Positions 7,415-54,766 of a stretch of DNA of 64,000 nt are shown here, piece after piece. Numbering within the stretch: position 1 is the first letter of the stretch; every line of letters begins with the position of its first letter. Where the stretch lies: assembly GCA_031414595.1 (NCBI GenBank), contig JANNVX010000014.1, positions 32,001 through 96,000 of the forward strand, written 5' to 3'. This DNA comes from Deinococcales bacterium. Its GTDB lineage: Bacteria > Deinococcota > Deinococci > Deinococcales > JAAFIG01. Under the pieces are notes generated by a model that searched no databases, was not told the DNA's origin, and saw only the letters and a program-made list of their open reading frames with translations. The position numbers and the translations under genes were made by a program.

Positions 7415-7419
7415 GAGCT

Positions 7420-7890: not shown

Positions 7891-8256
7891 ATGTTTACAG
7901 TTCGGTTTAATACTTTACTTCCAATCAGCTTTATCTCGCTTTGCGTTTTAACAATGCTTGGCTTGTTGGTGCGTGGTGTGGATTTCACTCGGTTGCTTGT
8001 GCCAGTGGTTCTTATTTTTGCAAGTTTCCGTGCTTTTTCCGCAGTTTACTTTTCGGTATATATGCAAACAGTTACCTTTAGGATTTCTTTCACGGCAGTT
8101 AAGCCGTTTGAGTTTCACAGTGCAGAAGTGCGTTCAGGGCGCTTGCATTTCTTGGATGCAACAGGTAAAACCCTCCTGAGTGTGGCAACTTGGCTATGTC
8201 GTACTGAGGATGTGAGTGCTTTGGTTAAGCAGTTTCCAGCATCCTCTAAGGAGTAG
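7891..8256 (+). CDS. Membrane protein (copy 2)
   Basis: ATG at 7891 after AGGAG; stop abuts the next gene. Confidence 0.7.
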   Translation: MFTVRFNTLLPISFISLCVLTMLGLLVRGVDFTRLLVPVVLIFASFRAFSAVYFSVYMQTVTFRISFTAVKPFEFHSAEVRSGRLHFLDATGKTLLSVATWLCRTEDVSALVKQFPASSKE

Positions 8257-8262
8257 GTCTTT

Positions 8263-9466: not shown

Positions 9467-11557
9467 GTGTTGAAACCTTTAACAACTCGAGTCTGGTGCT
9501 TGGTAATGGCGCTTATGGCGGTTTTGGTTGCTTGCCCTGATCCAATTCCACGGGTGGAGTATAAATTGCTGAGCATTTTGCCTACACCAGTCACCCCGGG
9601 CGACACAGTGACCGCCTTTGGGGTATTTCCAAAAACCGCCCAAGTCTTTGTGGGTGGTGAACTGATCACAAGTAGCGCAGTCAAGGACGGCTTGCGCTTT
9701 ACTCTTCCAAGCACAGCCTCAGCACAGGATACCAATGTCCGAATTTCAGGTGTTGCCCCTTGGGGAGAAAACATCAGCTTGGCTGGGTCTTTGGCAGTAA
9801 ACCCAAGGATTGATGCGGTTGCGGTTCAAGGGCAGTATGTGCGAGTTCTTGGGGCTGGCTGGACGGCTTCCTCGAGTGTGGTGCTTAAAGTCAATGGTCG
9901 GGCTGTACCAGTTTCTCAAGATGGTGCTGCTTTGCTGGGTGAACTGCCGAGGTCAGCAACTTTTGGCTTGTTGACTGTTACTGTCGAAGTTGCTAAAAGA
10001 GTTTCTAACCCCAAAGGTGTCTTATTTGAAGCTGGAGCAGTTCAAGGTCGGGTGAACATCCCAGTTGCGGTGGCTGAAATTCAGGCTCGAGTTTCAACCG
10101 TAAAAGCCACTCAAGTAAAGGCATTCTTAGTCAAAGGCACACAAGCTGCACAACGCGCAGTTCGGCTTTTGCCATACGCAGCCACAAAAGCTATCCGAGC
10201 TTTAGACTTAACCCAATTTACCTTCTCGAGTGTCGCCCTAGCCCAACAAGCCTTTAGGATACTTCGAGATGCAGCTATTTTTGCCGCATGGGATCAGTGG
10301 GTTGGGGTTACAGATGCAGGACTCAGCACCATAAGTCAAGCCCCCAAAAGTATTCGGACAACCTTGGCAGGTTCAGTCCCAACACCGAGTTCTGAGCAGT
10401 GGTTTCTTGGTTTACAAAGTATTCCAATGGCATGGCAAGTTACTCAAGGCAAAAACGTAACTGTTGCGGTGATTGATACCGGAGTTGACCTCAAGCATCC
10501 AGACCTCAAAGCCAATGTTTTGCCTGGATATGACTTTGTGGATAACGACCCAATTGCCCAAGATATTTCCGGACACGGCACACATGTGGCTGGGCTGGTG
10601 GCTGCCAATGGAAAAGCTTATGGCGTTGCACCACAAGCAAATATTTTGCCAATTCGGGTACTACGAGACCTCTCTGGCGGCAGCACCAGTACAGTTGCCC
10701 AAGGGATTCTCTGGGCAGCCAACTTATTGCCAGATTTACCAAATCTAAACCCAGCCCAAATTATTAACTTGTCGCTTGGCTCAAATGACTATAGTCCAAT
10801 CCTTGATGCGGCTATTCAGCAAGTCCAAACTCGAGGTGTGATTGTTGTTGCCGCAGCAGGAAATAGTGGTGGTGCAGTAGCGTTTCCTGCGGCACTCAAA
10901 GATGTTATTGCGGTAACTGCTTTGGCTGGGGTCAGAGGTGGAGACTTGCTTTACCAACCGTCTTATGCGTCCCGAGGTCCCGGTGTTTGGGTCACGGCTT
11001 TTGGTGGCGATATGTCTCAAGACCAAAATAAGGATGGTTTCCCCGACGGTATTCTCAGTACCGATGTGACCGACACAGGTTATGGTTTACGAATGGGGAC
11101 TAGCATGGCTTCACCCCAAGTTGCTGGACTTGCAGCACTTGCACTGGCGAGTGGCTCAAAACCAGCAATGGTACGTGAACTCTTAGCTCAAACAGCAACA
11201 GACTTAGGTGTTCGAGGCATAGATTTACAATTTGGCTATGGTCTAATTTCGTCTCGAGCCATCACAGGCAGCCAACCTCGAATGTATGCCATTGCACTGG
11301 ACACCACAAGTAAAGTGGTCAGTTGGAGTCTTGTACAGCAAGATGGTACGTTTCTGGTTCAAAACCTGACCCCAAGTCAAAATTTGCAAATCATTATTGC
11401 TAGTGACGAAAACGCCAATGGTATCGTTGGAGAGATAATGGAATGGCGTTCAGATACCTTGGAAATTCAAGCGGTAGCCGCACAAATTAAAGACGTTGAA
11501 ACCCTATCTTTGCATCCATCGAATCAAAGTGGTGTGCAGTTGATTGTTAAACCATAA
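9467..11557 (+). CDS. Lipoprotein S8 (subtilisin-like) serine protease with N-terminal IPT/TIG-like region
   Basis: Lipobox LVAC; catalytic motifs VIDTG, GHGTHVAG, AAAGN and GTSMASP. Confidence 0.92.
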   Translation: MLKPLTTRVWCLVMALMAVLVACPDPIPRVEYKLLSILPTPVTPGDTVTAFGVFPKTAQVFVGGELITSSAVKDGLRFTLPSTASAQDTNVRISGVAPWGENISLAGSLAVNPRIDAVAVQGQYVRVLGAGWTASSSVVLKVNGRAVPVSQDGAALLGELPRSATFGLLTVTVEVAKRVSNPKGVLFEAGAVQGRVNIPVAVAEIQARVSTVKATQVKAFLVKGTQAAQRAVRLLPYAATKAIRALDLTQFTFSSVALAQQAFRILRDAAIFAAWDQWVGVTDAGLSTISQAPKSIRTTLAGSVPTPSSEQWFLGLQSIPMAWQVTQGKNVTVAVIDTGVDLKHPDLKANVLPGYDFVDNDPIAQDISGHGTHVAGLVAANGKAYGVAPQANILPIRVLRDLSGGSTSTVAQGILWAANLLPDLPNLNPAQIINLSLGSNDYSPILDAAIQQVQTRGVIVVAAAGNSGGAVAFPAALKDVIAVTALAGVRGGDLLYQPSYASRGPGVWVTAFGGDMSQDQNKDGFPDGILSTDVTDTGYGLRMGTSMASPQVAGLAALALASGSKPAMVRELLAQTATDLGVRGIDLQFGYGLISSRAITGSQPRMYAIALDTTSKVVSWSLVQQDGTFLVQNLTPSQNLQIIIASDENANGIVGEIMEWRSDTLEIQAVAAQIKDVETLSLHPSNQSGVQLIVKP

Positions 11558-11576
11558 GTGCAACCACGGAGGTTAT

Positions 11577-12821
11577 GTGAAGAAATTTTTTGGAATACTC
11601 TTAGTGATGGTCGCAGTTGCTGTAGGCATTGTCAGTCTTGCCGCAGCTTATCCAGCAAAACTCGAAAGTTTCCCTAGTGGATTTAGAATTCGAGCTGAAC
11701 AAAATATTCGTTTTTTTGTGGATTATCAGCAAAAGCAAATCATCGTTCCCGAAGCTCAATTGCCAGAGGGTACAAGTGTGCCATCAGATGCAAAGCTCGA
11801 GTTGCGAGCAGATGGTTTTATCCTAACCCTTTCCTATCCTTTTTCGGTAACGCTCAATCCATCAGGAAAATTGCTGACTATTCTCAAAGACGAACCAAAT
11901 GCTGTGCCTTCTGACGTTCGCATCCCCGTTTTTTACGAGATGCACAATGCCCAAGCATCCCAAGTCGCAGCTATTTTGACCCGTTTGTATCCTGGTTTGA
12001 AAGTTGAAGTTGATGAGCGTCAACGTTCAATCATAGTGCTACTCAGTCCTGCTGACCGTGAAGTAGTTGACCAAGTAATTAAACGCTTAGATGCACCACG
12101 ATTACAAGTCATGTTTGAAGCTGAAATTGTTGAAATAAACCGTAAAATATCACAGCAACTAGGCATAGATTACTCGAGACTTTTTAACCTTAACTTCAAA
12201 TTCAATGAAGGAACTCCACCCAATGGAGTGCTTGGCTTTGCGCCATTTCAACGCAGCCCTCTGTCACTTGAAGTGGGCATTAACCTGCTCAAATCAAACG
12301 GTGTGGCTAGAACACTCACTCGCCCTCGCATTGCCGTTTTGGATGGTCTCGAGGCGCGTATAAATGCTACTCAGACCCAGCCTATTCGCACAGTTGGCTC
12401 TGGTGGACAAGTTACTGTCTCCAATATCACCACAGGTATCAGTCTTCGTTTAGTTCCTAAAGTCGCTCCAGACAAGACCATTGAATCACAACTGAGTATT
12501 GCTGTTTCGTCACCTACAGGTATCTCGAGTGAAGGTTTACCAACCTACAGTACCCGTGAAGCGAGCACAACGGTACGAGTAAAAAATGCTGAGAGTATTG
12601 TTATCGGTGGATTGATCGAATCAAGGCGTAGTACCTCAAGTTCAGGAATTCCGGGGCTTATGGATATTCCAATTCTCGGAGAATTATTCAGAACAACCTT
12701 TACCGAGGAGTCTGACACCGATCTTTTGATTGTTGTTACCCCCTATGTAGTCAATAATGTCTTGCTCCCAGAAACTCCTCCTGCTCCAGAAACTCCTCAA
12801 GAACCACCAAGTCAACCATGA
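11577..12821 (+). CDS. Secretin (GspD/PilQ-type outer-membrane channel), short form
   Basis: N3-like domain, DAPRLQVMFEAEIVE, IVIGGLI, GIPGLMDIPILGELF and LLIVVTP; GTG start after GGAGG. Confidence 0.9.
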   Translation: MKKFFGILLVMVAVAVGIVSLAAAYPAKLESFPSGFRIRAEQNIRFFVDYQQKQIIVPEAQLPEGTSVPSDAKLELRADGFILTLSYPFSVTLNPSGKLLTILKDEPNAVPSDVRIPVFYEMHNAQASQVAAILTRLYPGLKVEVDERQRSIIVLLSPADREVVDQVIKRLDAPRLQVMFEAEIVEINRKISQQLGIDYSRLFNLNFKFNEGTPPNGVLGFAPFQRSPLSLEVGINLLKSNGVARTLTRPRIAVLDGLEARINATQTQPIRTVGSGGQVTVSNITTGISLRLVPKVAPDKTIESQLSIAVSSPTGISSEGLPTYSTREASTTVRVKNAESIVIGGLIESRRSTSSSGIPGLMDIPILGELFRTTFTEESDTDLLIVVTPYVVNNVLLPETPPAPETPQEPPSQP

Positions 12822-17140: not shown

Positions 17141-17584
17141 ATGCAAGCATTTATTCCCACAAGACCAGCACCCGCTCCACCAAGAGTATCACTGCTTGGA
17201 CTAAAAGCCACAACCATTTTAGAGGTTGGTGAAGCAGTCGAAAACGGTTTTGCCACAAGCCTTGTCAAGCGGTTTGCTTCGCATATCAATGCTTCGTTGC
17301 AAGATACACTCAAACTGCTGGATATAAGCAAACGCACTTTTCACCAATACCAACGCCATAAAAAGCCTCTGAGCCGAAGTGTAAGTATCAATGTGCTTCT
17401 CTTAGCCCAAATCACAGAGGCAGCCGAGCAGTATTTTGAAGATAAAACCAATGCCCATGCTTGGCTTGCCACACCTCGAACTACTTTTGGAGGCACGACA
17501 CCTCTTCAGTTCAGTCTGCTGCCCAATGGGGCTGAATACGTTAGAGCCGTGTTGAACAAACTCGAGCATGGGGTTGTTACGTGA
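17141..17584 (+). CDS. Xre/MbcA/ParS-type antitoxin (partner of RES toxins), apparently orphan
   Basis: ISKRTF HTH; A..WL.TP...FGG.TPL....GAEYV..VL.KLEHG. Confidence 0.8.
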   Translation: MQAFIPTRPAPAPPRVSLLGLKATTILEVGEAVENGFATSLVKRFASHINASLQDTLKLLDISKRTFHQYQRHKKPLSRSVSINVLLLAQITEAAEQYFEDKTNAHAWLATPRTTFGGTTPLQFSLLPNGAEYVRAVLNKLEHGVVT

Positions 17585-18741: not shown

Positions 18742-19086
18742 TTATCCAAACTTCCTTTGAACCAAACGCCAGCACAAAGTGACCATCAGACCAGCGAATA
18801 GAATCACTGCCCAACTTGGTAATTGCAGAATCACCGCCAAGCTGTATGAGTAAACCCCAGCACAAAAGGTTAAAGACCAGACCAATGGAATTTTGGCAAA
18901 TAATTGTAGAAACGCATCAAGATTATGCCCATAGTGCTTCTCGAGCAAGAATAGGATGATGGCAAAGACCATCAGGCTCGAGACAAGACAAAGCCCAATT
19001 GAGGCATTGACAGTCACGAGTAATCTTGTTGTCAAACCTCCAGCCAGAACTGCAAAAACAAGCAACTCGAGGTGAACCCTTTTCAT
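18742..19086 (-). CDS. Hypothetical membrane protein (about 4 TM segments)
   Basis: Hydrophobic segments; 4-nt overlap with upstream gene. Confidence 0.65.
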   Translation of the reverse strand: MKRVHLELLVFAVLAGGLTTRLLVTVNASIGLCLVSSLMVFAIILFLLEKHYGHNLDAFLQLFAKIPLVWSLTFCAGVYSYSLAVILQLPSWAVILFAGLMVTLCWRLVQRKFG

Positions 19087-19436
19087 GGTGTCTCCAAGTT
19101 CGCCTTGCCAAAAAACCGAGTATTCATTTGTTCTCGTAACCGATGATTCTCAAGGGTGAGTTTACCAAGTAAGCGCTCGAGTAGGATTTCTTGGGCTTTT
19201 GATCGCTCGAGTTGTTTTTGTAGATTCAAATTCTCGGTCTCGAGTAAACCAGATTGTTGTTCTGAACTAATAAAAGCATCATTACCAAAGCGTTCATATA
19301 AAGCTCGCCAAGAAAATAAGGTTGAAGCTAGGATTTTATGTTCTCGAGCCACAGCACTAGGTCGTTTGTGTTGTTCAATGACTTCCTTGACCATTCGCAA
19401 CTTAAATTCGGGGGTGTATAACTTTCGGTTTTTCAT
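19083..19436 (-). CDS. IS3-type OrfA-like HTH/leucine-zipper protein without OrfB
   Basis: RKLYTPEFKLRMVKE...VAREHKI..STLFSWR plus coiled coil ending LGKLTLEN. Confidence 0.75.
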   Translation of the reverse strand: MKNRKLYTPEFKLRMVKEVIEQHKRPSAVAREHKILASTLFSWRALYERFGNDAFISSEQQSGLLETENLNLQKQLERSKAQEILLERLLGKLTLENHRLREQMNTRFFGKANLETP

Positions 19437-19903
19437 GGTCTAGTCCTTACATTAAATGTAATCGTGTGAATCACGGTATCTTTTGTATCTCGAGGAAGTT
19501 CAGTAAGCTCTAATTGATGCTCGTTATTTAGGGTAAAAGCTATGGTGATTCGGCTTTTGGTTAAAGTCCATCCATCACTATTTACAGCACTTGATTCAAG
19601 AACTTGTAAAAAAGTGGTTAGAGCTTTCTCAAAGGTCGTCATAAATTGGGGGATTGGTGTTCCAAAATCATTAACAGTAAAACTTTGGCTATCCACTGAA
19701 AATTCAATGTGTACAAGTTCTTCCTTGGTGGTTACGCTGGTTGCAAGGTTTAGTTCGCTTGCTTTTCGGGTTTTGCTTGCTTTATCGAGATAGAACGCCC
19801 ATGTCACTTGGGTGATCTGAATTCTTGTGCCTAAAAGGTTATAGGTGTGCGCTATATTGAAGGTGCTTTGTACCGCACCAAGATAATCAATGGGCTGGTT
19901 CAT
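19433..19903 (-). CDS. Hypothetical protein
   Basis: Coupled by 4-nt overlaps on both sides. Confidence 0.65.
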   Translation of the reverse strand: MNQPIDYLGAVQSTFNIAHTYNLLGTRIQITQVTWAFYLDKASKTRKASELNLATSVTTKEELVHIEFSVDSQSFTVNDFGTPIPQFMTTFEKALTTFLQVLESSAVNSDGWTLTKSRITIAFTLNNEHQLELTELPRDTKDTVIHTITFNVRTRP

Positions 19904-20619
19904 TCTCGTGTCCCTAAGCCTAACTCGAGACCATCATCCAAAAGATGGTTTTCATGCTCGTTAGTTAAATTTTCCTCGAGAATAACTTTGCGTTTCATGG
20001 GTGGAATCCATTTCTTCCAATGCTCTGGGATTTCTAATCGCATTGGCTTGAGATTTTGAGCAATTAAGAAACCATGCTCGAGAACCCCAGTCATGTGTAG
20101 ATACCGAGCATCTTCGACCAAATTCAGTAAATCGAGGGTGGTTTTAGCACTGACCACAAATGGTTCTATTTTTTTGTTGTCTGGTGGGTAAACTCGCAGC
20201 AATACTAATTTCTCAGCTCGGTCTAAACGGAGGACTTTGCCAGCCGCACTCCAGAAGGTATCAGCACCATTCAAATCAACGGCATTCTCGAGGGGCATGA
20301 CTCGAGCCAAGGTGAGGTTGGCTAAGCGTTGGTCTTTGAAGGTCTTGCCGTACAACGTGGCTCTCCAAGTACCAGAGAGTTGGATTGAAGACTGTTCAGG
20401 GTGGGTGTTGCGCCACCTCGAGAAAACCCTTGGGTGAACTCGAGCGATGTAAGTACCATTTTTTGGATTGCCAAGTTGAATGGTGACTCGAGTGTTTTGC
20501 TGGTCATCTTGGATGGTGGCATTGGCTTGGATGAAGAAATGGTGGTTATAGTCGGTGTGAATACCTTTTGGCATTGGCTGTGGTGTGGTTACAAGAGTTT
20601 CAAAAACGTCATTTGACAT
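19900..20619 (-). CDS. Hypothetical protein, paralog of 20652-21248
   Basis: Shared WSA.G...D....LV..RVYP.....PF..SA motif; RBS GGAG. Confidence 0.75.
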   Translation of the reverse strand: MSNDVFETLVTTPQPMPKGIHTDYNHHFFIQANATIQDDQQNTRVTIQLGNPKNGTYIARVHPRVFSRWRNTHPEQSSIQLSGTWRATLYGKTFKDQRLANLTLARVMPLENAVDLNGADTFWSAAGKVLRLDRAEKLVLLRVYPPDNKKIEPFVVSAKTTLDLLNLVEDARYLHMTGVLEHGFLIAQNLKPMRLEIPEHWKKWIPPMKRKVILEENLTNEHENHLLDDGLELGLGTRE

Positions 20620-20651
20620 GCTATCTCCTATTCACGGGTTTCTTATCGTCT

Positions 20652-21248
20652 TTAGTTGGCTTTCCAGTTGCGCCAACGATCAGGAATTTCTAAATCTTGA
20701 TTGGTTAATACTTCTGCAACAAGCTTTTTGCCACTTAAGTTCCCTATCAAATGGACAAACTCATTTTTTCTTGGCAACTCTTGTTCTACTTTCAAACTGG
20801 CTGAAATCAAAAATGGCGTGGCTCGAGCTTGCTCAGGGTAAACCCGAATCGTGACCAATCGGTGTATTGGGTCACTTTTGGTGATTTGTCCAATAGCACT
20901 CCATCGCGGCTGGTGGGAATCTTCTCGTTCTAACTCGAGGGGTTCAATACGATGTAGGTGAAGTGGTTCAAACAGCACACTATCGTTCAAAGTGCGGAAA
21001 TGAAGCGTACATAACCACCAACGATGACTTGCTGGGTTGAGCCTTAACACATCTGCACTGGCTTTAACCCGAAGCATGGTGCTATCGGAGAGTTGGATGT
21101 CCATATTGTTACCGCTCCCTGAATCGTAAATACAAGCCGCCACTCGCATAAAAGCATGGCATCCATCAGGAATAGGAAAATCAAAAGTGAGTTTTCGTGG
21201 GGTAGTGGTCAATGGTCTGCCTCGAGCTTGGATTTTGTGACTGGTCAT
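20652..21248 (-). CDS. Hypothetical protein, paralog of 19900-20619
   Basis: Same motif; ATG 21248 after AGAGGTGG. Confidence 0.75.
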   Translation of the reverse strand: MTSHKIQARGRPLTTTPRKLTFDFPIPDGCHAFMRVAACIYDSGSGNNMDIQLSDSTMLRVKASADVLRLNPASHRWWLCTLHFRTLNDSVLFEPLHLHRIEPLELEREDSHQPRWSAIGQITKSDPIHRLVTIRVYPEQARATPFLISASLKVEQELPRKNEFVHLIGNLSGKKLVAEVLTNQDLEIPDRWRNWKAN

Positions 21249-21390
21249 AAGAAATGCCACCTCTGTACACATCGGATCGTGTTTGTTACAAAAGGTGGTG
21301 GTGTTAAACGAGATTGATTGTCTTGAACTGCCAACATGAGTTGTAAGCTCAAGTGCTGACCCTAATTGCTTGGGGCATTTACATTATAAC

Positions 21391-21443: not shown

Positions 21444-21671
21444 ATGCCTCGCTTTGCGGTAGACCCAGAGATAATACGTGTTCGCATTCGTCAATTACGA
21501 CTCGAACAGGGTTTAACCCAAGATGAAGTAGCAGCCCGAAGTGGAATCAACGAAAAGCACTATCAAGACCTCGAGACGGGAAGGAAAGCCTTTAATCCTA
21601 CTCTCGAGACCCTCAATGCTTTTGCTTTGACCTTTGAAGTGGAACTGGCTGTCCTTCTAAAATCGGAGTAA
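21444..21671 (+). CDS. XRE-family HTH regulator upstream of the tniQ-cas operon
   Basis: IRQLRLEQGLTQDEVA.RSGI...YQDLE.G...NPTL. Confidence 0.88.
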   Translation: MPRFAVDPEIIRVRIRQLRLEQGLTQDEVAARSGINEKHYQDLETGRKAFNPTLETLNAFALTFEVELAVLLKSE

Positions 21672-21838
21672 AACCGTAGATTCCTGACACGTTATTCGGA
21701 AATTTAACGTGAAATACACGGGAGTTTGAAAATCAGAGTTGGTCATTGTAGACCAAACAAAAACAGTATGCTAAGTTATCCGTCAGTGACAGACTATTAT
21801 AAATGTCAACGAAACCTGAATCTTGAGGTAATTAGGAT

Positions 21839-22798
21839 GTGTTTCATATGATTGAAACTGCCAAAAACCCACACTGGGCAATCCACCCTCAAATCCAAAA
21901 TGGTGAGTTGTTTGAATCTTGGATTGTGCGGTTGAGTGCCGAAAATGGCTTTCGCCTGCGCGAAGTGATACAGCAATTAGAACTCAAAAATGTCTTTTGT
22001 TCTAAAAACAATGTTGAGATCAAAGCCGTAAGAAAATTGTCGGATGCAACTGGGATACTTCAATATCGAATCCTCGAATCCCATCTTGGGTGGCTTCAAA
22101 ATCACTCTGATCTTGCCTATGCAAAAACATTTACCCTTTGGGGGCGTAGCCCATCGGACACGATACAGCATTTTAAGTTTTGCCCAGACTGTTTTGCTAA
22201 TCAAGACAAGCCACACATACTGCTTGACTGGGCATTTGAAATCACTCAGTTCTGCACGGTACATCAACGACCTTTACTCGAGCGTTGTCCAAAATGCCGC
22301 GAGCCACTTCAGTTTAGTTTGCTTTTCAACAAAACAATACAACCCGAAATCTGCTCTAATTGCAGCACAAAAATGAAAATCCATGCTCGGAAACACAGCA
22401 TTGATTTCAAATTTGGTCTCGAGCTACAAAGACAAATCTTGAGCCTCCGAAAACATGACCAAGTATCACCAAAACAATCACGAATTATCCCAGCAAAAAC
22501 GTTTTTATCAATTGTTGAGCGGATATTTTATCGCTTTACCAATTTACCCAACCAGCAAACCTTCTCTAAATTGACTGATCTCTCAGTTATGTTGCTGGAT
22601 GATCGTTTTTCGCAAGCGTACCGAAGAATAAACGCCCTGACCATTTGTGGCTGGCTTTTAGCCGACCCAATAGTACGAATTATTACTCTGCGCCAATTCA
22701 CGCAAAAGTATGTTGAATACTCGACGGCTATTCAAATTATTTCTGTTCTGAATTATGCACAAGCGACATTGCAACCACGTAATGGAACTTACCAATGA
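21839..22798 (+). CDS. tniQ: TniQ family target-selector protein
   Basis: N-terminal HP....GELFESWIVRLS..NG; zinc-binding FCPDC, FCTVH...LLERCPKC and CSNC; start at 21839 or 21848. Confidence 0.9.
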   Translation: MFHMIETAKNPHWAIHPQIQNGELFESWIVRLSAENGFRLREVIQQLELKNVFCSKNNVEIKAVRKLSDATGILQYRILESHLGWLQNHSDLAYAKTFTLWGRSPSDTIQHFKFCPDCFANQDKPHILLDWAFEITQFCTVHQRPLLERCPKCREPLQFSLLFNKTIQPEICSNCSTKMKIHARKHSIDFKFGLELQRQILSLRKHDQVSPKQSRIIPAKTFLSIVERIFYRFTNLPNQQTFSKLTDLSVMLLDDRFSQAYRRINALTICGWLLADPIVRIITLRQFTQKYVEYSTAIQIISVLNYAQATLQPRNGTYQ

Positions 22799-23529
22799 GC
22801 TTATTTGCACTCGAGGTTTGGGGCGATTACGCCTGTTTCACACGTCCTGAAACAAAAGTTGAAAGACTTAGTTACCCTGTGATGACTCCAAAAATTGCTC
22901 GAGCAATTTTTGGAGCGATCTACACCCAGTTTTCTGGGGGTGAAACACCTCACACAACTTTTTTCTGGCAAGTCAGGCGAATCGAAATCCTCAATCCAAT
23001 TGTGTTTATTTCGTTCTCACACAATGAAGTCAAAGGGAGAGCAAGCACTTACAACATTTTGCGCTCAGTTCATCAGCCCGACGCACTTCAACCGCTCATG
23101 GCAGATGGCAATGATGATTCCAGCAAAGAGACTGGGCGCACCCAACGCCAATCAATGATTTTGCGCGAGGTGCGTTATCGGATATTCGCTGAACCAGTGC
23201 TGTACAATCCAAACCAAAGCAATCTGAAGCAAATCACCCACGAATTTGCTCGACGTGCAGCCAAAGGCAAGTGTTTCCATCAGCCTTTTTTGGGATGCCG
23301 TGAATACATAGCATTTTTCCAGCCAGTTCCGCCCACATTTGGCGTTGGCGCACCGATTTTTGAAGATATTGGTTGGATGATCTACGATACGTTTGATCTA
23401 TCACAGCCAAGCTCAATCACCATTACACCAAGCATTAGTATCTTCAGGGCGACGATTCAAAACGGTGTTCTCGAGATACCGCCGTATGATAGCAACGAGG
23501 TACGCAAACTAGGACTGGGAGTGATTTGA
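22795..23529 (+). CDS. cas5c: Type I-C Cas5 (Cas5d)
   Basis: LEVWGDYACFTRPE.KVER.SYPVMTP; RRA.KG.CFHQPFLGCRE; F.A....GVL. Confidence 0.97.
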   Translation: MSLFALEVWGDYACFTRPETKVERLSYPVMTPKIARAIFGAIYTQFSGGETPHTTFFWQVRRIEILNPIVFISFSHNEVKGRASTYNILRSVHQPDALQPLMADGNDDSSKETGRTQRQSMILREVRYRIFAEPVLYNPNQSNLKQITHEFARRAAKGKCFHQPFLGCREYIAFFQPVPPTFGVGAPIFEDIGWMIYDTFDLSQPSSITITPSISIFRATIQNGVLEIPPYDSNEVRKLGLGVI

Positions 23530-25343
23530 TGCTCGAGGCTCTGATCGAATATGCTCACCGAAAACAATTGGTTCTCGAGCCTGGTTTTGCTGGCAGGCGT
23601 ATTCATTGGTTAATAAATCTTGACTCTAAAGGACAGGTTCAATCCGTTTCTTTTGCAGATGAATCCAAGCGACGAGCGAAGTTGTTTCCATGCTGTCCAG
23701 ACCTGCAACAGCCCCAACTGATCAGGCTGCCACATGTACTTAAACAGCTTGGAATACTATCAACACGAGCAGCCCACTTTTTAATGGATTCATGTTGTCG
23801 TGTGGTGCTTTATCCAGATAACGATCAGTTGGAACAACATAAGACTTTTCTAAACCTAATCCAACTAGCAAGCCAAGAAGTTAGGATATTACGACCAGTT
23901 GCAAAAATGCTTTCAAAGCAAAAGGAAATTGGTCGAGTACATCAAGCCCTCATTCAATTGAAAGCCACAAAAACCGACAAAGTATCGTTTTCGGTGGATG
24001 GAGTGGTCATACTTGAGGATACAACGTGGCATGATTGGTGGCGAAGATTTTATATAACCACAAGCTCAAAGCAAAATTCAGATCGTATGATCAGTCTGGT
24101 TTCAGGAGAAGTTATTTCGCCTGCCAGAACACATCCAGCGCTTAAATCCTTGGTCGAAAAAAAAGTAACTTTTGGAGCGGCAGTAGTGGCTGTGCATAAA
24201 ACTGCCTTTACCTCATATGGGCTAAAACAAGCCGAACACGCCGCCATGTCAGGAGCATCTGCCGCTGCCTATCATGCAGCTCTGGAAGATTTATTGAGAC
24301 AAACTAGGATGGTTCATGGTACGAAAGCGGTGTATTGGTACAACCAAGAAATTCCACTACAATCCGACCCACTGGCGCTGATGTTGCGCGATGAACGCAT
24401 AGATAACATCAACTACCGAAAACAGCTTGAGGATATTCTTTCACAAGCTCGAAAAGATGATTCTCGAGATGTTGCTTGCCATATTGCTGTGTTGCGTGAA
24501 AATGAAAATCGGGTCAGGATTTCATTGTACAAAACGCTGCGATTGAGTGAAGTGGCGGCTGGACTTATTAAATGGCTCGAGGATACTTCAATTGATGGTT
24601 TGGCAGGTACTGGTTTCGTAGTTGATCTACCCAGCGAATTTGCTGGTATGTTTCGTCAACGAGTTGGGGGAAAAAGCGATAAGGCACTTGACTTTCAACC
24701 ACTACTGATTGTGTTGTACCAGCAGATGCTCAACCCCACTCTACCCATTGCGATGGCTCTGGTTGATTATTCACTTAAATCGGTCATTACCAGCTTTGTA
24801 AAAGGCAAATTTCAGGCAGCATTTGCAACCAAGGCAGATTTACCATTGCGACAAAATTTGGTGATTTACATGGGTATTTTGAAAGCATTTTGCCGTCACT
24901 CAGGTGATCGAGACCTATTGCAACAACTGAATCCTAATCATCCTAATTCACACTATCAAACAGGTCGGCTCACTGCGATGCTCGAGCGTATTGATGGGTT
25001 GAATAATCCTCCACATGTTGAACTCAAAAACCAAAGGTTGTTTTTGCAAATTATGACGACACCGAACAATATCCTGCAAGAAAAAATGGCTTCCAGTCAA
25101 CGAAAGCTCAAGCGACTTGAAAGAACTCGACGATGGTTCAGCCTATACTTACAAAAAGAAATGAATACGATTTGGGAGAATCTTGATGCTAAGGTTCGGA
25201 GTAATAGCTCAGTAAAACGCCAATGCTTATTCCTATTGGGTTACTTTCAACAAACCATTTCTCAATTGATTGAACCTGTGCAAAACGATGATTTTTACAA
25301 TTTGGAGTCGAGAACCTTTAAGGAGCAACATGAAACCGATTGA
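23526..25343 (+). CDS. cas8c: Type I-C large subunit Cas8c/Csd1
   Basis: ML.AL..YA N-terminus; AFTSYG..Q...A; C-terminal Y..GRL.A.LE and Q..FLLGYFQQ; lies between cas5 and cas7. Confidence 0.9.
   Translation: MMLEALIEYAHRKQLVLEPGFAGRRIHWLINLDSKGQVQSVSFADESKRRAKLFPCCPDLQQPQLIRLPHVLKQLGILSTRAAHFLMDSCCRVVLYPDNDQLEQHKTFLNLIQLASQEVRILRPVAKMLSKQKEIGRVHQALIQLKATKTDKVSFSVDGVVILEDTTWHDWWRRFYITTSSKQNSDRMISLVSGEVISPARTHPALKSLVEKKVTFGAAVVAVHKTAFTSYGLKQAEHAAMSGASAAAYHAALEDLLRQTRMVHGTKAVYWYNQEIPLQSDPLALMLRDERIDNINYRKQLEDILSQARKDDSRDVACHIAVLRENENRVRISLYKTLRLSEVAAGLIKWLEDTSIDGLAGTGFVVDLPSEFAGMFRQRVGGKSDKALDFQPLLIVLYQQMLNPTLPIAMALVDYSLKSVITSFVKGKFQAAFATKADLPLRQNLVIYMGILKAFCRHSGDRDLLQQLNPNHPNSHYQTGRLTAMLERIDGLNNPPHVELKNQRLFLQIMTTPNNILQEKMASSQRKLKRLERTRRWFSLYLQKEMNTIWENLDAKVRSNSSVKRQCLFLLGYFQQTISQLIEPVQNDDFYNLESRTFKEQHETD
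24918..25343 (+). CDS. cas11: Putative internally translated Cas11 (141 aa, in frame within cas8c)
   Basis: AGGTGA at 24902-24907, then an in-frame TTG at 24918 just before the Y..GRL motif. Confidence 0.55.
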   Translation: MQQLNPNHPNSHYQTGRLTAMLERIDGLNNPPHVELKNQRLFLQIMTTPNNILQEKMASSQRKLKRLERTRRWFSLYLQKEMNTIWENLDAKVRSNSSVKRQCLFLLGYFQQTISQLIEPVQNDDFYNLESRTFKEQHETD

Positions 25344-26295
25344 AAATCGCTACGAATTTCTACTCATTTTTGATTGCGAAAATGGCAATCCCAATGGTGA
25401 TCCCGACGCAGAAAACCTTCCAAGAATAGACTCCCAAGACGGTCATGGATTGGTCTCTCCAGAATCAATCAAACGAAAGATTCGTGACCGTATTGCCCTG
25501 AATGGTATAGAAATCTTTATCCAACACCAAACCAATCTCAATCGTGCGATTTTTGCGGCGCGTGAACAGAGTAATACCTTAAAAGACAAATCCACCAAGA
25601 TAACATTACAAAACGCCGCTGCAATTATGTGTAAACGATTTTATGATGTTCGGACTTTCGGTGGGGTAATGACTACAGGTGTCAATTCAGGTCAATTGAC
25701 TGGACCTGTGCAGATTACATTAGCTCGCAGTGTTGACCCAGTTCATATCATGGATTGGGGAATTACTAGAGTGGCTGTTGCCGAAACTGTCCAAGGAGCA
25801 AAAACCCTGGCTGACTACGAACAATGGGAATCCGAACAAAATGCTTCAGATTTAAGAACTATGGGACGGAAAAGCCTGATTCCATATGGATTATTCGTAG
25901 CCAAAGGCTGCATCAGTGCGTTTGATGCGGAAAGAACAGGGTTTTCAGAAGCTGACCTCGAATTGCTCTGCGAAAGCATGTTAGACATGTTTGAACACAG
26001 TCGCAGTGCCAGTCGTGGTTTGATGACCACAAGGCGCTTGGTAATTTTTAAGCATATAGGATCATCCAAAGACCCCAAAGTGCGCCTCAAACAAGCTAAA
26101 CTAGGGCGTATTCCAGCACAAAATTTGCTCGAGTTAGGCAGAATTGTTCGCATTTCTCGCGTCAATAAAGATGCTTTTCCTCGAGCCTATCACGATTACG
26201 ACGTGGTTGTGGATACCAGTGCATTACCAGAAACCATTGAAGTGCTGGATTTAGATTTGTGGGATGAAGAAAAGTTTCGCTCGGCTTGGGTTTAA
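25330..26295 (+). CDS. cas7c: Type I-C Cas7 (Csd2)
   Basis: IENRYEF...FD..NGNPNGDPDA.N.PRID; FYDVRTFG.V; GPVQ; TMGRK..PYGL; ATG 25330 after AGGAG. Confidence 0.97.
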   Translation: MKPIENRYEFLLIFDCENGNPNGDPDAENLPRIDSQDGHGLVSPESIKRKIRDRIALNGIEIFIQHQTNLNRAIFAAREQSNTLKDKSTKITLQNAAAIMCKRFYDVRTFGGVMTTGVNSGQLTGPVQITLARSVDPVHIMDWGITRVAVAETVQGAKTLADYEQWESEQNASDLRTMGRKSLIPYGLFVAKGCISAFDAERTGFSEADLELLCESMLDMFEHSRSASRGLMTTRRLVIFKHIGSSKDPKVRLKQAKLGRIPAQNLLELGRIVRISRVNKDAFPRAYHDYDVVVDTSALPETIEVLDLDLWDEEKFRSAWV

Positions 26296-26467
26296 GCGAA
26301 CCCTTAGTGGCACTAAAATCACCTATAGTTCGCGGAAACCAAATTTCGTCTATGACGTGATTCTTCTGTGCGATATTGAGTAGTGATCAAAAAATTAATG
26401 TTGAATTATTGGGTTCGCAGAATGTATTCCTTTTTGACTTTGTACTATGAAAAGATATACATTTACA
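26296..26467 (+). promoter_or_regulatory. CRISPR leader with predicted promoter TTGACT(26434)-18 bp-TACATT(26458)
   Basis: GCGAACCC...GTTCGC...GGGTTCGC leader-type motifs; AT-rich; ends at the first repeat. Confidence 0.7.
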
Positions 26468-26645
26468 GTCTCAATGGCATCTAGCCGTCGAGACGCTTGA
26501 AACCAAACCCGACGAAAGGATGCACATTACGATAATCCGTCTCATGGGCATCTAGCCGTCGAGACACTTGAAACATTGCCATCTAAAGTCCAATCACATA
26601 CATTGGCATGTCTCTATAGCTTTTAGACATTGCGATGCTCGAGAT
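26468..26645 (+). CRISPR. Minimal CRISPR array: 36-nt repeats at 26468, 26539 and degenerate 26610; two 35-nt spacers
   Basis: Repeat GTCTCAATGGCATCTAGCCGTCGAGACGCTTGAAAC (hairpin, GAAAC end); third copy is 24/36 identical; period 71. Confidence 0.92.
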
Positions 26646-26717
26646 TTGGAACTTTACAAAAAAAGTCTTTGCAGTAGCGACAATAAACCGTTAGCACCAC
26701 TACATTCTCTTAAAACC

Positions 26718-26746
26718 TTGAATAAACATAGGACATGAGCTAGGAT
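26718..26746 (+). promoter_or_regulatory. Predicted promoter for the delocalised repeat-spacer: TTGAAT-17 bp-TAGGAT
   Basis: Canonical spacing; predicted start falls at the 5' end of repeat 26751. Confidence 0.6.
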
Positions 26747-26750
26747 TACA

Positions 26751-26808
26751 GCCTCAACGGTACTTAGCCATCGAGACGCTTGAAACTAACCAATTGACCT
26801 ATATGCCC
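26751..26808 (+). CRISPR. Delocalised atypical repeat (26751-26786) plus tRNA-targeting homing spacer (26787-26808)
   Basis: Repeat GCCTCAACGGTACTTAGCCATCGAGACGCTTGAAAC; spacer TAACCAATTGACCTATATGCCC matches the minus strand of 27086-27107 at 18/22. Confidence 0.88.
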
Positions 26809-26890
26809 GAATTTATTTTTTCCAAAGCCTCTTGTTCCAGATATGCGGAGGTCAAAGCCAAAAGGTTTGCTTGAAAGGAGTATTGGGATC

Positions 26891-27038
26891 ACTGACACGG
26901 TAAACGATAAGAAATGATATAGAATTTAACTCGAGTTCGTTAAACACAATGTTTATTTAGGAAAGTTCAATCAGTGCCACGGTAAACGATATTGACATTC
27001 ATAAAAATAATTACTGACAAAGTAAACGATAATTCACA
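26891..27038 (-). repeat. Tn7-like transposon end with three TnsB-type binding repeats
   Basis: ACTGACACGGTAAACGAT (26891), AGTGCCACGGTAAACGAT (26973), ACTGACAAAGTAAACGAT (27013), then 8 bp AATTCACA, i.e. a 5'-TGT terminus. Confidence 0.85.
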
Positions 27039-27043
27039 CCTAT

Positions 27044-27072
27044 TTGCCAAATGTGCATTTTACGGTTAATCT
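27044..27072 (+). promoter_or_regulatory. tRNA promoter TTGCCA-17 bp-TAATCT
   Basis: Canonical spacing, 13 bp upstream of the tRNA. Confidence 0.7.
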
Positions 27073-27085
27073 AGGGGTCGTGCGA

Positions 27086-27162
27086 GGGTCTATAGCTCAA
27101 TCGGTTAGAGCGGAGGTCTCATAAACCTTAGGTTCGGGGTTCAAGTCCCCGTGGACCCACCA
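27086..27162 (+). tRNA. tRNA with CAT anticodon, most likely tRNA-Ile2 (lysidine); elongator Met not excluded
   Basis: Full cloverleaf: GGGTCTA/TGGACCC acceptor, GCTC/GAGC D-stem, GAGGT-CTCATAA-ACCTT, CGGGG-TTCAAGT-CCCCG, ACCA end. Confidence 0.95.
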
Positions 27163-31907: not shown

Positions 31908-32342
31908 TCAGGAAGCCCATGTTTTACCAATGCCTGAACCTCTTTGGCTCTCGAGAAGTAGGTCTTGATGCAACGAAGTACCTTGTTCCCTAGCGGCTGT
32001 GATTGGAATGAATTCATCAGTGGTTTTTAAGCCTATGACCAACTCTGCATTTACTGCGTTACAGAGTCGCAACAATGTTTCAAGGGTATGGTTTTGATTT
32101 ACATTTTCCCAACGTGAAATAAGACTTTGTTTTACCCCCATTTTTTTAGCAAGTTGCGCTTGTGTATAGCCTACTGTCTTACGCGCTTTTGCTAAAGCAA
32201 CCACTAAACAATATTTTACAGCCTCTTCATTGGCAATGGCTTGCATTTCTGGAGTATCAGGAATCAAATCCTTCATCCACTTTGCCAAGTCCACAGGGGA
32301 AGTAACGGATGCTTGTACTTTGCTAATTTTTTTGTTTTTCAT
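31908..32342 (-). CDS. HigA-like XRE antitoxin
   Basis: HTH TQAQLAKKMGVKQSLISRWE; downstream of the toxin. Confidence 0.8.
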   Translation of the reverse strand: MKNKKISKVQASVTSPVDLAKWMKDLIPDTPEMQAIANEEAVKYCLVVALAKARKTVGYTQAQLAKKMGVKQSLISRWENVNQNHTLETLLRLCNAVNAELVIGLKTTDEFIPITAAREQGTSLHQDLLLESQRGSGIGKTWAS

Positions 32343-32346
32343 AATT

Positions 32347-32718
32347 TTATTCTTTCTGAGCTTCTTCGCGCTCGAGAATAATAGCGCGGCGTTGACGGGC
32401 GACTTGTAGTTCCAATGGTGGTATTTTATTGTTTGAACGTCCTACTTTTGCAAACCCATGAAGTAAAATAATTCTTGTGCCAATGGTCGTAAAAAGAATT
32501 CTCGGGTTGTTCGTAGAGTTTTCGGCGCGTAATTCAAAAATACCTAATTCTATCTGGGAAACGATGTGCGAAGAGACAAGATGTTTTTCATCTCGAGCAT
32601 ACTGAAGTCTCAATAGTAGCCTTTGTACTTCTGCATTTAACAACTGACCAAGGAAGTCCTGAACAGGGTTTTTTCCACGATGATCGGTAAATTGTTCTAT
32701 GCTCCATTGAACAGACAC
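32347..32718 (-). CDS. RelE/HigB (Gp49-like) toxin
   Basis: G.NPV.DFL, IFELR, RILF, IILLHGF.K...K.P..E...A..R. Confidence 0.85.
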   Translation of the reverse strand: MSVQWSIEQFTDHRGKNPVQDFLGQLLNAEVQRLLLRLQYARDEKHLVSSHIVSQIELGIFELRAENSTNNPRILFTTIGTRIILLHGFAKVGRSNNKIPPLELQVARQRRAIILEREEAQKE

Positions 32719-34490: not shown

Positions 34491-34889
34491 TTAGGGGAGC
34501 AACTCCAAGTAATCTAAATGAAGCGGTTTAACAACACGAAAATGTCTTCGGTCTAAAGTCAGCACTTTGCGAATACGGTAACGTTCGGCTAAGGCAACAA
34601 TACTTGCATCCACAAAACCAAGGGGTAAATCTTGGTAATACCGTCTAATCTGATTGACTCGCTCTAAATCCAATTGGTCAAATGTCAGTAACTCGTTATT
34701 TTTGACAACCCGTTCAAAAAAGGTTTTCGCCGTATTTTCACCAAGGTATTTACAAAGAAAATAGTCAACTTCGCACAACACAGAAGTTGGTACAAGTAAA
34801 CCTTGTGTTTCAAAAGGCTTAATGGCTAAATGATGCTTGTCGTTTGCATCAATCATGGCGATTAAAGCGCCAGTATCGCATAAAATCAT
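34491..34889 (-). CDS. vapC: PIN-domain VapC toxin
   Basis: ILCDTG, E, FVDASIVALAER, LTLDRRHF. Confidence 0.92.
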   Translation of the reverse strand: MILCDTGALIAMIDANDKHHLAIKPFETQGLLVPTSVLCEVDYFLCKYLGENTAKTFFERVVKNNELLTFDQLDLERVNQIRRYYQDLPLGFVDASIVALAERYRIRKVLTLDRRHFRVVKPLHLDYLELLP

Positions 34890-35660: not shown

Positions 35661-37139
35661 TTAGTAAGAATTATTTTGAGCTAAGTGGCTCACTTGACTA
35701 GCAGTCCAAACGGTGGTTTGCGGAATGAAATTAAAGTTTTGTGCAATTGGCTGGCTCGAGACGGCTACAGCAGGTTTAACACCAAGGCTTTCTAAGGCTT
35801 TCTCGAGTGGTTCGTCTCGTCCTGTGTTGAAGAATTTATATTCAAAGTTTTCGGTCAGTACATCGGGTTTAACTTGAGCAGGTAGGTTCCCTCCTGTTGA
35901 CCACACGGCTTGAATTGTAGGCATTCCAGCCGCTCCACCGTTCGCCAATCCAAAACGGGCGGTGTTGGTGTTGCCAATACCGACAGTCGGTGAACCGAAC
36001 ACTTGGGCGCGTTTGGCTTTCTGGATATAAGAAGCAAAGTATTCACAACCAGAAGCACAACCGCCATCCACCAGGACGGCTAGGGGTCCTTTATAGACAA
36101 CAGGGTTAATAATACTAAGACTAATAAGTTCGACTTTTTGTAAGTTGCGTGCAAAAACTCTTCCAGCGTTGTAACCCCATTCAATCGTGTTTCGGGCTGG
36201 ATTATAACGAGGAGTCCACTGCATTAAGTCTGGTGTTTCGATAAAAGCACCAACCGAAGCAATCGTCTCGAGGACACTGCCACCGCCATTGCTGCGTTCG
36301 TTGTAAATGATGCCTTTTGCGCCTCTAGCAACAGCTTCACGCACAAGTTCATGAAGTTTTTGGGCAACCCCATTGATTTGAAAATCTTTCATGGTAATCA
36401 TCGCAATACCATCTGGGCGAATCTCGAGTCCAGGTTGTTCGGATGTGTTGATCAGTTCGCCTTTGATTGGAAGTTCAATCCGAGTGCGATTGAGACCGCG
36501 CAGTAAAATCATTTTAATCGTTTCGCCAGCCCGTACTTTGGTTGTGAAATCGGCATATGACTTGTTGATATTTTCGAGGTTGCCATCAAAACTAGCAAAC
36601 ACCACGTCGTTATAACCAATCCAACGGTCACCATATTTAATACCTGCCTTATCAGCAGGGGCATCTTTGACAACACTGGAAACAAACCGATCACCAATGA
36701 ATTTACTGGTTAGGTTTCCTTTGTCATCTGTGCTGCATTCACCGGTTGGCGTTTCACAAAAGTTGCGTAAACCAATACCAATTCGAGGTGTTGGACTGGT
36801 GGCTGCTCCGCCTCGGTTGGCATTTTCTTGGGCAACGTTAGCGGCGGTTAGATAGTAGGTATGGTCATCTTTGAAATCATCGAACAATTGCACCAGCAAA
36901 GGTTCAACTTTGTCATAGCCACATTTTTCTTTAAGCTCGCTACAGGCTTCGTCTACTTTAGCTTGGTACTTGGCAATGATTTCTTGGACATTGATGGTAC
37001 TCGGACCAAAATACTGGGTCTCGAGGAAAAAAGCCGCTTGGTCAAATAAATCTTGGGCGGGGCTTCCAATGTATTTCTGGGCGCTGGCAACCGAGCCAAG
37101 CGCGGCAGCAATGGCAATGATTCGTACAAGGTTTTTCAT
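35661..37139 (-). CDS. S41 family peptidase with PDZ domain
   Basis: Signal peptide; [14 protein letters not shown]. Confidence 0.88.
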
Positions 37140-37163
37140 GTGTCCTCTTTTGGAGAATGGGTT

Positions 37164-38666
37164 TTAGTTGCTGCTTTGTAGCTCAAACGCCTTCCTTGGG
37201 GTGTACGATTGTTCAAGTACAGCTGTAATAGCATCATAACCAAAGGTTGGAATCGGCGCAAAAGGCACTTTAATTTCGGTGCTGCTGCTTGGGGCTTGTA
37301 GGGTTTTTACCCCAACACTCTCGAGGGCTTTATTCAAACCAGCATCTACACCAGTTTTGAAAACATCAAAAGTAGTGACTTTGAAATCAGGGGTGATAGC
37401 CGAAGGGAGTGGTGTTCCATCTGCCCAAAATGCCCGAAGGGTTGGCATATTGGCTGCCCCACCATTGGCTAAGGAAAAGCCTTGGGTGTTGGTGTTACCA
37501 ATACCAACGGTTTCTTCGCCAATCACTAGACCGCGTTTGGCGCGTTGAAAACTGCTCGAGATGTATTCGCAAGCACTGGCGCAACCACTGTCCACCAGCA
37601 CCGCAAATGCGCCTTCAAAAAGTACGGGATTTGTTACGGCACGGGTGGCATTGATTTCTGGGCGTGAGACATAACGCTGGTAGAAACCACCATTTTCAAA
37701 ACCTTCTTCGACGGTATTCTTATCGGCATTGTAGCGGGGGGTACGGCGCATTGCGGCAGGGGATTTGACAAATGCGCCTGTGGTAAACCAACGCTCCAAG
37801 GCAGAACCACCACCGTTGCCACGTTGATTAAAGATAACCGCTTTTAAGCCTTTGCTGTTTGCATCGCGGATGAGGTCGTGAATGCGTTGTCCAATTCCAG
37901 CAATCAAGTAATCTGGCACACGCAAAATACCAACCCCATCAGAGCGCAACTCGAGTTGTGGCACTTCGGAGGTATTAATGATTTCGCCTTTGACTTGAAC
38001 ATCCAGTTTTTGCTTTTCGCCACCACGCAAAATTTGCATGGTCAGGACTTCGCCAGCCCGAACCTTGGTGGTAAATTCAGCTTGAAATTGATTCAGTCTT
38101 GCCACATCGCCATTAAAGCTCGAGTAGAGTATGCCGCCATACCCAATCCAGCGATCACCGTATTTAAGACCTGCTTTGTCGGCTGGGGCATTTTTGACCA
38201 CGCCAGTAATTAAACGGTCTCCGTTGAGTTTGCTGGTCAGGTTGCCGGCTGCATCAAAAGTGCAAGCACCTGTTGGCGTTTCGCAGTAGCTCAGGCTGGT
38301 AAAGCCAATCCGTGGGACTGGGCTGGTGGCTGTCCCAGCCCGATTAGCATTTTGTTGGGCAACTGCCGCCGCACTTAAATAATAGGCATGTGGGTCTTGA
38401 ATTTCATCGAACATCACATCTAAAAGCGGTTCAATAGTGGTTGAAGCACACAACACACCTGTAGCAGCACATGCTTCGTCTACTTTGGCTTGGTACTTGG
38501 CAATGTGGTCTGCCATAACAATCGTACTTGGACCAAAATACTGAGTTTCTAAAAAGAAACTGGCTTGGTCATATAAATCTTGGGCTGGACTGCCAATATA
38601 TTTTTGCGCTCCTGCGGCACTCGAGCAGACCAAAGCAGCAGTTAAGCTCAGTACAAACTTTTTCAT
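37164..38666 (-). CDS. S41 family peptidase with PDZ domain
   Basis: Signal peptide; DPHA, RGNGGG, CASACE. Confidence 0.88.
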   Translation of the reverse strand: MKKFVLSLTAALVCSSAAGAQKYIGSPAQDLYDQASFFLETQYFGPSTIVMADHIAKYQAKVDEACAATGVLCASTTIEPLLDVMFDEIQDPHAYYLSAAAVAQQNANRAGTATSPVPRIGFTSLSYCETPTGACTFDAAGNLTSKLNGDRLITGVVKNAPADKAGLKYGDRWIGYGGILYSSFNGDVARLNQFQAEFTTKVRAGEVLTMQILRGGEKQKLDVQVKGEIINTSEVPQLELRSDGVGILRVPDYLIAGIGQRIHDLIRDANSKGLKAVIFNQRGNGGGSALERWFTTGAFVKSPAAMRRTPRYNADKNTVEEGFENGGFYQRYVSRPEINATRAVTNPVLFEGAFAVLVDSGCASACEYISSSFQRAKRGLVIGEETVGIGNTNTQGFSLANGGAANMPTLRAFWADGTPLPSAITPDFKVTTFDVFKTGVDAGLNKALESVGVKTLQAPSSSTEIKVPFAPIPTFGYDAITAVLEQSYTPRKAFELQSSN

Positions 38667-54747: not shown

Positions 54748-54766
54748 CGTAATAGAATATGGAATT

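Follow-up and report, generated by a model that had tools for sequence, protein, structure and literature searches.

The closest described counterparts of the locus reported here are putative type I-C CRISPR-associated transposons (CASTs; CRISPR, clusters of regularly interspaced short palindromic repeats), which Rybarski et al. (2021, 10.1101/2021.08.16.456562) found in metagenomic data, with TniQ next to TnsABC and, in the available part of their report, with no array, atypical spacer, tRNA or attachment site. In the accessible text of later work, I-C CASTs are still putative and without arrays (Hu et al., 2024), are counted among the mined CASTs (2024 review, PMC11656645) and rest on computational prediction (2025 review). 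The works of Rybarski and Hu were the only ones on I-C CASTs in the literature searched, which held nothing further on the guides of such elements; I-C is not mentioned in the main texts (supplements aside) of Faure et al. (2023) and Benler et al. (2021), the latter of which noted Tn7-like elements in Deinococcus-Thermus. A first-pass annotation of the DNA studied here had described I-C/Tn7 associations as at most computationally proposed, in agreement with this literature. Here we describe a stretch of 64,000 nucleotides (nt) from a Deinococcales bacterium (contig JANNVX010000014.1; hereafter the window), in which region 21444-27038 is probably the guide-carrying end of a Tn7-like CAST with a nuclease-less type I-C Cascade, and probably is, or recently was, the end of an RNA-guided transposon. 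The layout is that of an I-C CAST with tniQ inside the cas operon, and it is the first in the literature searched to which a guide, a protospacer-adjacent motif (PAM), a tRNA target and an end can be assigned. A divergent relative, L001 (a 9,485-bp contig of a Deinococcales metagenome-assembled genome, MAG), shares this layout.

The window and the I-C CASTs of Rybarski et al. have in common, as far as the available text of that report goes, a TniQ of the Tn7 type alongside Cas5, Cas7 and Cas8c, the lack of cas3, cas1 and cas2, and a purely computational basis. In the same text, TniQ stands beside TnsABC and not beside the cas genes, which lie downstream, whereas tniQ in the window is translationally coupled to cas5c; an array, a delocalised guide and a tRNA target are visible in the window, where TnsABC was not seen. 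Upstream of the window tniQ are an xre gene and divergent open reading frames (ORFs) without assignment, an arrangement unlike that described for the Rybarski elements. Type V-K and I-F3 CASTs resemble the window in having a short array plus a separate atypical repeat-spacer directed at a short stretch next to a conserved homing site, often a tRNA gene, in inserting at a fixed distance from the target, and in having Xre-type regulators nearby (PMC11656645 and PMC8649781, in the parts available). They differ in the effector, which is Cas12k in V-K and Cas8/5-Cas7-Cas6 in I-F but a three-protein I-C Cascade in the window, where processing of CRISPR RNA (crRNA) would fall to Cas5c and where complementarity ends at 20-22 nt of a spacer of about 35 nt. 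The type I-B CAST (8fcu) provides the best fold match of the window TniQ (327 versus 316 amino acids, with an identity of only 14%), and the window Cas7 also scores on models shared by I-B and I-C; type I-B, however, uses Cas6, which the window I-C lacks, and homes by TnsD rather than by a guide RNA, according to the accessible part of the 2024 review (PMC11656645). The canonical I-C systems of Deinococcus, Meiothermus and Truepera have Cas7 proteins about 55% identical to that of the window, which nests within their group, and they share with the window a hairpin repeat, and with L001 a TTC PAM. The order cas5c-cas8c-cas7c is the canonical I-C gene order, and that of the window is the same. 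The window departs from canonical I-C in having no cas3, cas4, cas1 or cas2, in carrying tniQ in the operon, in having only 2-3 spacers, and in the long branches of its Cas7.

The operon and the gene directly upstream of tniQ are as follows.

21444-21671, plus strand: small Xre-type helix-turn-helix (HTH) gene, 75 amino acids (Pfam HTH_3, E 3.1e-11)
21848-22798, plus strand: tniQ, 316 amino acids from the ATG used in the stored protein P0001 (PF06527)
22795-23529, plus strand: cas5c, 244 amino acids (NCBIfam TIGR01876, 7.4e-33; PADLOC Cas5c, 9e-42)
23529-25343, plus strand: cas8c/csd1, large subunit (PF09709, 1.8e-57; PADLOC Cas8c, 4.9e-56)
25331-26295, plus strand: cas7c/csd2, 321 amino acids (TIGR02589, 1.6e-82)

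Pfam, NCBIfam and PADLOC concur on the names of all four proteins from TniQ (PF06527) to Cas7c, which confirms the identities given in the first-pass annotation. TniQ (E 4.5e-16, 60.2 bits against a PF06527 cut-off of 27), Cas5c and Cas7c exceed curated cut-offs, and Cas8c is above the Pfam cut-off but under the NCBIfam equivalog cut-off. All four genes are intact and densely packed on the plus strand: the tniQ stop and the cas5c start overlap as ATGA, a coupling already noticed at first reading and present in the sequence, the cas5c/cas8c junction overlaps as TGATG, and cas8c and cas7c overlap by 13 nt. The start of tniQ had been placed at 21839, where a GTG offers a possible alternative start, but the stored protein begins at the ATG at 21848. 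The signature set of a type I-C Cascade (Cas5c, Cas8c/Csd1 and Cas7c/Csd2) is therefore present as annotated by name, and no Cas6 accompanies it. Matches to cas3, cas1, cas2, cas4 or an integrase were absent from the 61 ORFs scanned over the whole 64 kb (20 + 34 + 7 small ones), so the operon is flanked by none of the four cas genes, just as had been noted from its surroundings.

In the PDB, Cas5c has its closest relatives among the I-C Cas5 pre-crRNA endonucleases (for example 8g9t, 7kha and 8dex). The AlphaFold model of TniQ is confident (predicted local distance difference test, pLDDT, 89; predicted template modelling score, pTM, 0.87), and its top fold match in the PDB comes from a type I-B CAST (TniQ chain 8fcu_P, E 7e-7); TniQ or TnsD chains take ranks 1-17, 19, 22 and 23 among the PDB fold matches listed for it. 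The Cys/His zinc-finger columns of TniQ are invariant across the clade alignment. A complex prediction for TniQ with Cas7c scored 0.00, which counts neither for nor against binding. A scan for promoters and terminators gave signals no better than chance, and the upstream Xre-type gene is a possible regulator of the operon.

Downstream of cas7c, the window carries a short array, a lone repeat-spacer, a transposon end and a tRNA gene.

26468-26647 (end approximate), plus strand: mini CRISPR array of R1, S1, R2, S2 and a degenerate terminal repeat (repeat family D1)
26468-26503, plus strand: repeat R1, 36 nt
26504-26538, plus strand: spacer S1, 35 nt
26539-26574, plus strand: repeat R2, 36 nt
26575-26609, plus strand: spacer S2, 35 nt
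From 26610, plus strand: degenerate terminal repeat R3
26751-26852, plus strand: candidate delocalised homing guide, with an atypical repeat (26751-26786), a spacer (26787 to about 26821) and a degenerate weak hairpin (26827-26852)
26888-27038, plus strand: transposon end, with three direct 22-bp repeats and a putative tip (repeat family D4)
26888-26909, 26970-26991 and 27010-27031, plus strand: the three end repeats, with start-to-start spacings of 82 and 40
27086-27162, plus strand: tRNA gene with anticodon CAT (called Met), the putative attachment site (ARAGORN; Rfam tRNA, 72.3 bits)
27073-27110, minus strand: target of the homing guide, with PAM CTC at 27110-27108 and protospacer from 27107 down to 27073

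This series bears out the first-pass annotation, which had read a two-spacer array followed by a lone repeat-spacer, then a Tn7-type end (found here as three direct repeats and a ...CACA tip) and then a tRNA, whose anticodon is CAT according to both ARAGORN and Rfam; the label Met covers elongator Met, initiator and Ile2 alike. R1 and R2 each form a hairpin, after which comes a tail of 9 nt with GAAAC at its end (z-scores -3.8 and -3.0), and Rfam found no CRISPR-repeat family. The lone atypical repeat lies about 100 nt beyond the array and diverges from R1 at several positions. Neither S1 nor S2 matched the plasmid collection, and the stretch from S1 through the repeat to S2 had no match in the phage collection.

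The lone spacer matches the adjacent tRNA gene. Its nucleotides 1-22 agree at 18 of 22 positions with 27107-27086 on the minus strand (mismatches at 6, 12, 18 and 19), a stretch that is exactly the first 22 nt, or 5' edge, of the gene. No better match exists anywhere in the window on either strand, and none of 60 shuffled spacers reached it. Three of the four mismatches fall on positions 6, 12 and 18, a placement with a chance of 0.0026; with these positions left out, the match is 18 of 19. Positions 6, 12 and 18 are those left unpaired by type I Cascades. The PAM flanks the target but not the spacer copy itself, the PAM-distal side of the target faces the transposon tip, and the tRNA copy in the spacer is inverted relative to the tRNA, not direct. 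These features support the reading of the lone spacer as a putative self-targeting guide against the neighbouring tRNA gene, with the right polarity and with Cascade-type mismatches at every sixth position.

Between guide and tRNA gene, the three end repeats share the motif ACTGACA..GTAAA and are predicted to be sites of the kind bound by TnsB. The tip would be ...TTCACA, ending at 27038 if its exact position is rightly placed. On this placement the PAM-proximal base of the target is 69 bp from the tip and the tRNA boundary 47 bp.

The same arrangement recurs in L001, the single locus obtained when genome contigs were searched with a profile of an 11-row TniQ alignment (without P0005 and P0013, both lacking the N-terminus, and P0015); it was the 1 relative among 19 pattern matches, which did not include the genome of the window itself. 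Identity to the window is 31% for TniQ, 53% for Cas5c and 36% over 600 amino acids for Cas8c. In L001, tniQ and cas5c again overlap by ATGA and are followed by cas8c, cas7c, an array of four repeats homologous to those of the window, two cargo ORFs and a lone atypical repeat on the opposite strand; an HTH_3 ORF is also found near the array (5391-5672, minus strand). The L001 end has three homologous repeats with spacings of 83 and 40 and a tip ...CCACA, followed by tRNA-Leu(GAG), and the two ends align in register across the three repeats and the tip, of which ...CACA is common to both. The lone spacer of L001 matches the 3' edge of this tRNA-Leu at 17 of 20 positions (mismatches at 6, 9 and 18; reached by 0 of 200 shuffled spacers), and its target directly follows a TTC PAM in the T-loop. 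From the PAM-proximal base to the tip is 66 bp, and from the tRNA boundary to the tip 46 bp. The orientation of the guide within the element is flipped between window and L001, with the order PAM, target, tip kept. No cas3, cas1, cas2 or cas4 occurs in the 9.5 kb of L001. The shuffle tests and the layout conserved in L001 indicate that the region is more than a chance assembly, and the tRNA-matching guide, the L001 layout, the similar distance from PAM to tip and the homologous end repeats together support what had been proposed from the window, namely an RNA-guided transposon with a three-gene I-C Cascade.

If the region is the end of such a transposon, the operon would make TniQ, Cas5c, Cas8c and Cas7c, and Cas5c would cut the transcripts of the mini-array and of the atypical repeat into crRNAs, with no need for Cas6. 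The atypical crRNA would guide Cascade to the PAM-flanked site at the 5' edge of the tRNA(CAT) gene, where TniQ would link the bound Cascade to a transposase, expected to comprise TnsC and TnsB with or without TnsA and encoded farther left, outside the window. On insertion, this end would come to lie downstream of the PAM at a distance of about 66-69 bp and the tRNA gene would be left intact, and the two array spacers would serve hops into other DNA, for example plasmids or phages. A second end would be expected along with tnsABC, and the element may be active at the present day.

Several observations weigh against reading the region as the end of an RNA-guided transposon. The PAM-distal 13-15 nt of both guides, in the window and in L001, have no complementarity to the target. 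PAM-distal mismatches block integration in characterised type I-F3 systems. The window PAM is CTC and not the TTC shown for I-C Cascade, which in D. vulgaris is 5'-TTC in the available part of the source. Neither tnsA, tnsB (rve-type transposase) nor tnsC is among the 61 ORFs of the window, and an inverted second set of end repeats was found neither in the 27 kb left of the tip nor elsewhere in the window. A search with a 14-mer of the end repeat (up to 3 mismatches) gave 8 matches against 4 expected, with only the three known sites convincing. In a weight-matrix scan, the known sites scored 18.5-22.6, the best minus-strand site 12.0, with no minus-strand cluster, and the best site elsewhere, a single plus-strand site at 18297, 17.4; the matrix combined sites of the window and of L001 that were offset by one base, and it is hence blurred. 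The L001 contig stops 218 bp upstream of tniQ, where the start of an unrelated divergent ORF is found and not tnsC. Tn7-like CASTs have two inverted ends, with multiple transposase-binding repeats and tips reading TGT/ACA, and a 5-bp target duplication; of these, the window shows one end, with a putative tip. Left of tniQ, an IS3-family OrfA-like HTH gene (19083-19436) lacks the transposase OrfB, and an Xre/ParS-type antitoxin gene (17141-17584) has no recognisable RES toxin after it, which hints at decay or rearrangement.

Part of this would be expected of a relic or non-autonomous remnant, that is, an I-C CAST that inserted by RNA-guided homing, then lost tnsABC and its other end, and is now immobile or moved in trans. 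The transposase genes and second end missing from the 27 kb to the left, the OrfA-only fragment, the antitoxin without its toxin, the non-canonical PAM and the partial guide match all suit such a history. The four genes with their overlapping junctions are nevertheless intact, and a relative with identities of just 31-53% has kept the same intact layout, an argument for functional selection. Type I-F CASTs, moreover, typically hold a large cargo region between tnsABC and tniQ-cas (Rybarski et al., 2021, 10.1101/2021.08.16.456562, in the text available), and the absence of tnsABC within 27 kb is for this reason weak evidence. We consider a relic rather unlikely.

It is very improbable that the locus is not a transposon module at all but a TniQ-linked I-C Cascade used, for example, for repression of the tRNA locus or for defence with cas3 elsewhere, next to unrelated repeats. 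Nuclease-less Cascades can in principle repress, and no transposase was seen; such a role, however, leaves aside two divergent loci in which three direct 22-bp repeats, alike in spacing and tip, lie at a constant distance from the target of the guide, the nearest solved TniQ folds, which are CAST TniQ and Tn7 TnsD mostly in complexes with TnsC or a CRISPR effector, and a guide whose orientation flips between the loci while the PAM-target-tip order is kept. That the tRNA-like spacer is the leftover attachment-site duplication of an integrase-type island, beside a repeat by chance, can be set aside almost entirely: tRNA-integrating islands do carry partial tRNA copies, and the match ends exactly at the tRNA boundary, but in the window the copy runs opposite to the tRNA, both loci have it immediately next to a CRISPR repeat, mismatches fall at 6, 12 and 18, the PAM lies beside the target and not beside the spacer, no integrase is among the ORFs scanned, and a flipped guide with the order PAM, target, tip kept is predicted by RNA-guided insertion and not given by a duplicated attachment site.

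Relatives of this TniQ are rare. A word-indexed search returned three clusters, that of the protein itself and two others with identities of 85% and 47%. With HMMER, 14 representatives passed a threshold of E <= 1e-10 and 500 one of E <= 1e-3, with about a dozen full-length relatives at roughly 30% identity among them. TniQ matches on plasmids were considered separately: tblastn against 72,556 plasmids gave 40 records, all below 60% identity, and none is a relative; among the 20 matches listed, identity is 21.6-27.2% and most carry a generic TniQ annotation.

The Deinococcota host suspected in the first-pass annotation is borne out by two lines of evidence. The best named relatives of the DnaA encoded in the window come from a Deinococcales MAG and from Deinococcus and Deinobacterium species (about 66% identity), and metagenome proteins reach 98%. 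In a Cas7 tree of 50 of the 120 hits listed (the top 32 plus 18 picked for name or distance) and the L001 Cas7, the window and L001 fall into a 12-row clade (Shimodaira-Hasegawa-like approximate likelihood ratio test, SH-aLRT, 99), nested in a 44-row group (SH-aLRT 99) with the I-C systems of Deinococcus, Meiothermus and Truepera; such a tree had been suggested as a check, and it places the window Cas7 with L001 inside this Deinococcota-rich I-C group. The tree comes from a quick search, its support values are those of SH-aLRT alone, and long Cas7 branches leave the exact placement unsure. Local capture of a Deinococcota I-C system is the simplest reading of these sequences.

A more specific scenario is conceivable, although we hold it only tentatively: a Deinococcota Tn7-like lineage may have captured a local I-C Cascade on its own and wired tniQ into the cas operon, with homing guides for which a match of about 20-22 PAM-proximal nt, confined to a conserved tRNA gene, is enough. 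Were this true, the element would have the most compact type I CAST effector known, with three cas genes in about 3.5 kb and no Cas6, and a partial R-loop would suffice to license transposition, unlike in type I-F3.

In the 27 kb left of the tip, an Rhs-type protein is encoded along with immunity-like genes; the other genes there are those of a subtilase, a secretin, a PMP-repeat protein and the orphan antitoxin, the IS3 OrfA fragment and ORFs without assignment. The large Rhs-repeat protein (2-6127), which has a PT-HINT pretoxin domain, extends beyond the start of the window; after it come a SUKH/SMI1-type immunity-like gene (6328-6786), small ORFs without assignment and a Big_7 Ig-domain protein; region 2-9453 resembles a polymorphic-toxin cassette and is possibly cargo of the element. 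At 9467-12821, the gene of a subtilase (Peptidase_S8, 696 amino acids) overlaps the start of a secretin gene (Secretin, Secretin_N), an unusual pairing. Pfam, NCBIfam, PADLOC and PHROGs were empty for the ORFs between 17725 and 21272 and for the two L001 cargo ORFs, except for the IS3-type HTH. Three co-directional minus-strand ORFs of 156, 239 and 206 amino acids (19433-21272), divergent from xre-tniQ and with no family match, lie in this part; the Atlas scores of the 239-residue ORF are all <0.9. In L001, positions 1-144 hold the start of a divergent ORF whose N-terminus has no assignment, and a ribosomal protein S15 gene (8975-9244) lies just past the target tRNA-Leu. S15 is a subunit of the V-K CAST transpososome (PMC11656645, in the part available), and the presence of its gene near the L001 target is probably a coincidence.

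The palindrome CTCGAG is the commonest hexamer of the window, with 281 copies in 64 kb against about 13 expected from base composition, and L001 has 35 copies in 9.5 kb; the excess looks like a trait of this Deinococcales lineage. The G+C content of the window is 45.9%. It is lower left of the tip than right of it, and CTCGAG occurs 3.0 times per kb on the left versus 5.4 on the right, which is consistent with acquired, cargo or island DNA and proves nothing. On the chromosomal side, the replication origin region of the chromosome is marked by minus-strand parB, parA and gidB and then plus-strand dnaA and dnaN (51840-57538), at a distance of about 27 kb from the transposon end. At 35661-41256, the minus strand bears a tandem of four paralogous genes for S41 (tail-specific) peptidases, some of which have PDZ domains. 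Toxin-antitoxin-type genes of the same side (Gp49/HigB-like with an HTH partner, PIN-domain and MazF/PemK-like) are found at 31908-32718, 34491-34889 and 41638-41988.

Together, the window and L001 supply features not found for the predicted I-C CASTs, namely a repeat, a delocalised guide, two PAMs (TTC and CTC), tRNA genes as targets, a distance of insertion and one end, and the target choice of I-C CASTs is now directly testable. A three-gene Cascade without Cas6 would give programmable DNA insertion a small effector of type I, and guides that match in the seed region only raise the question of how much R-loop a CAST needs.

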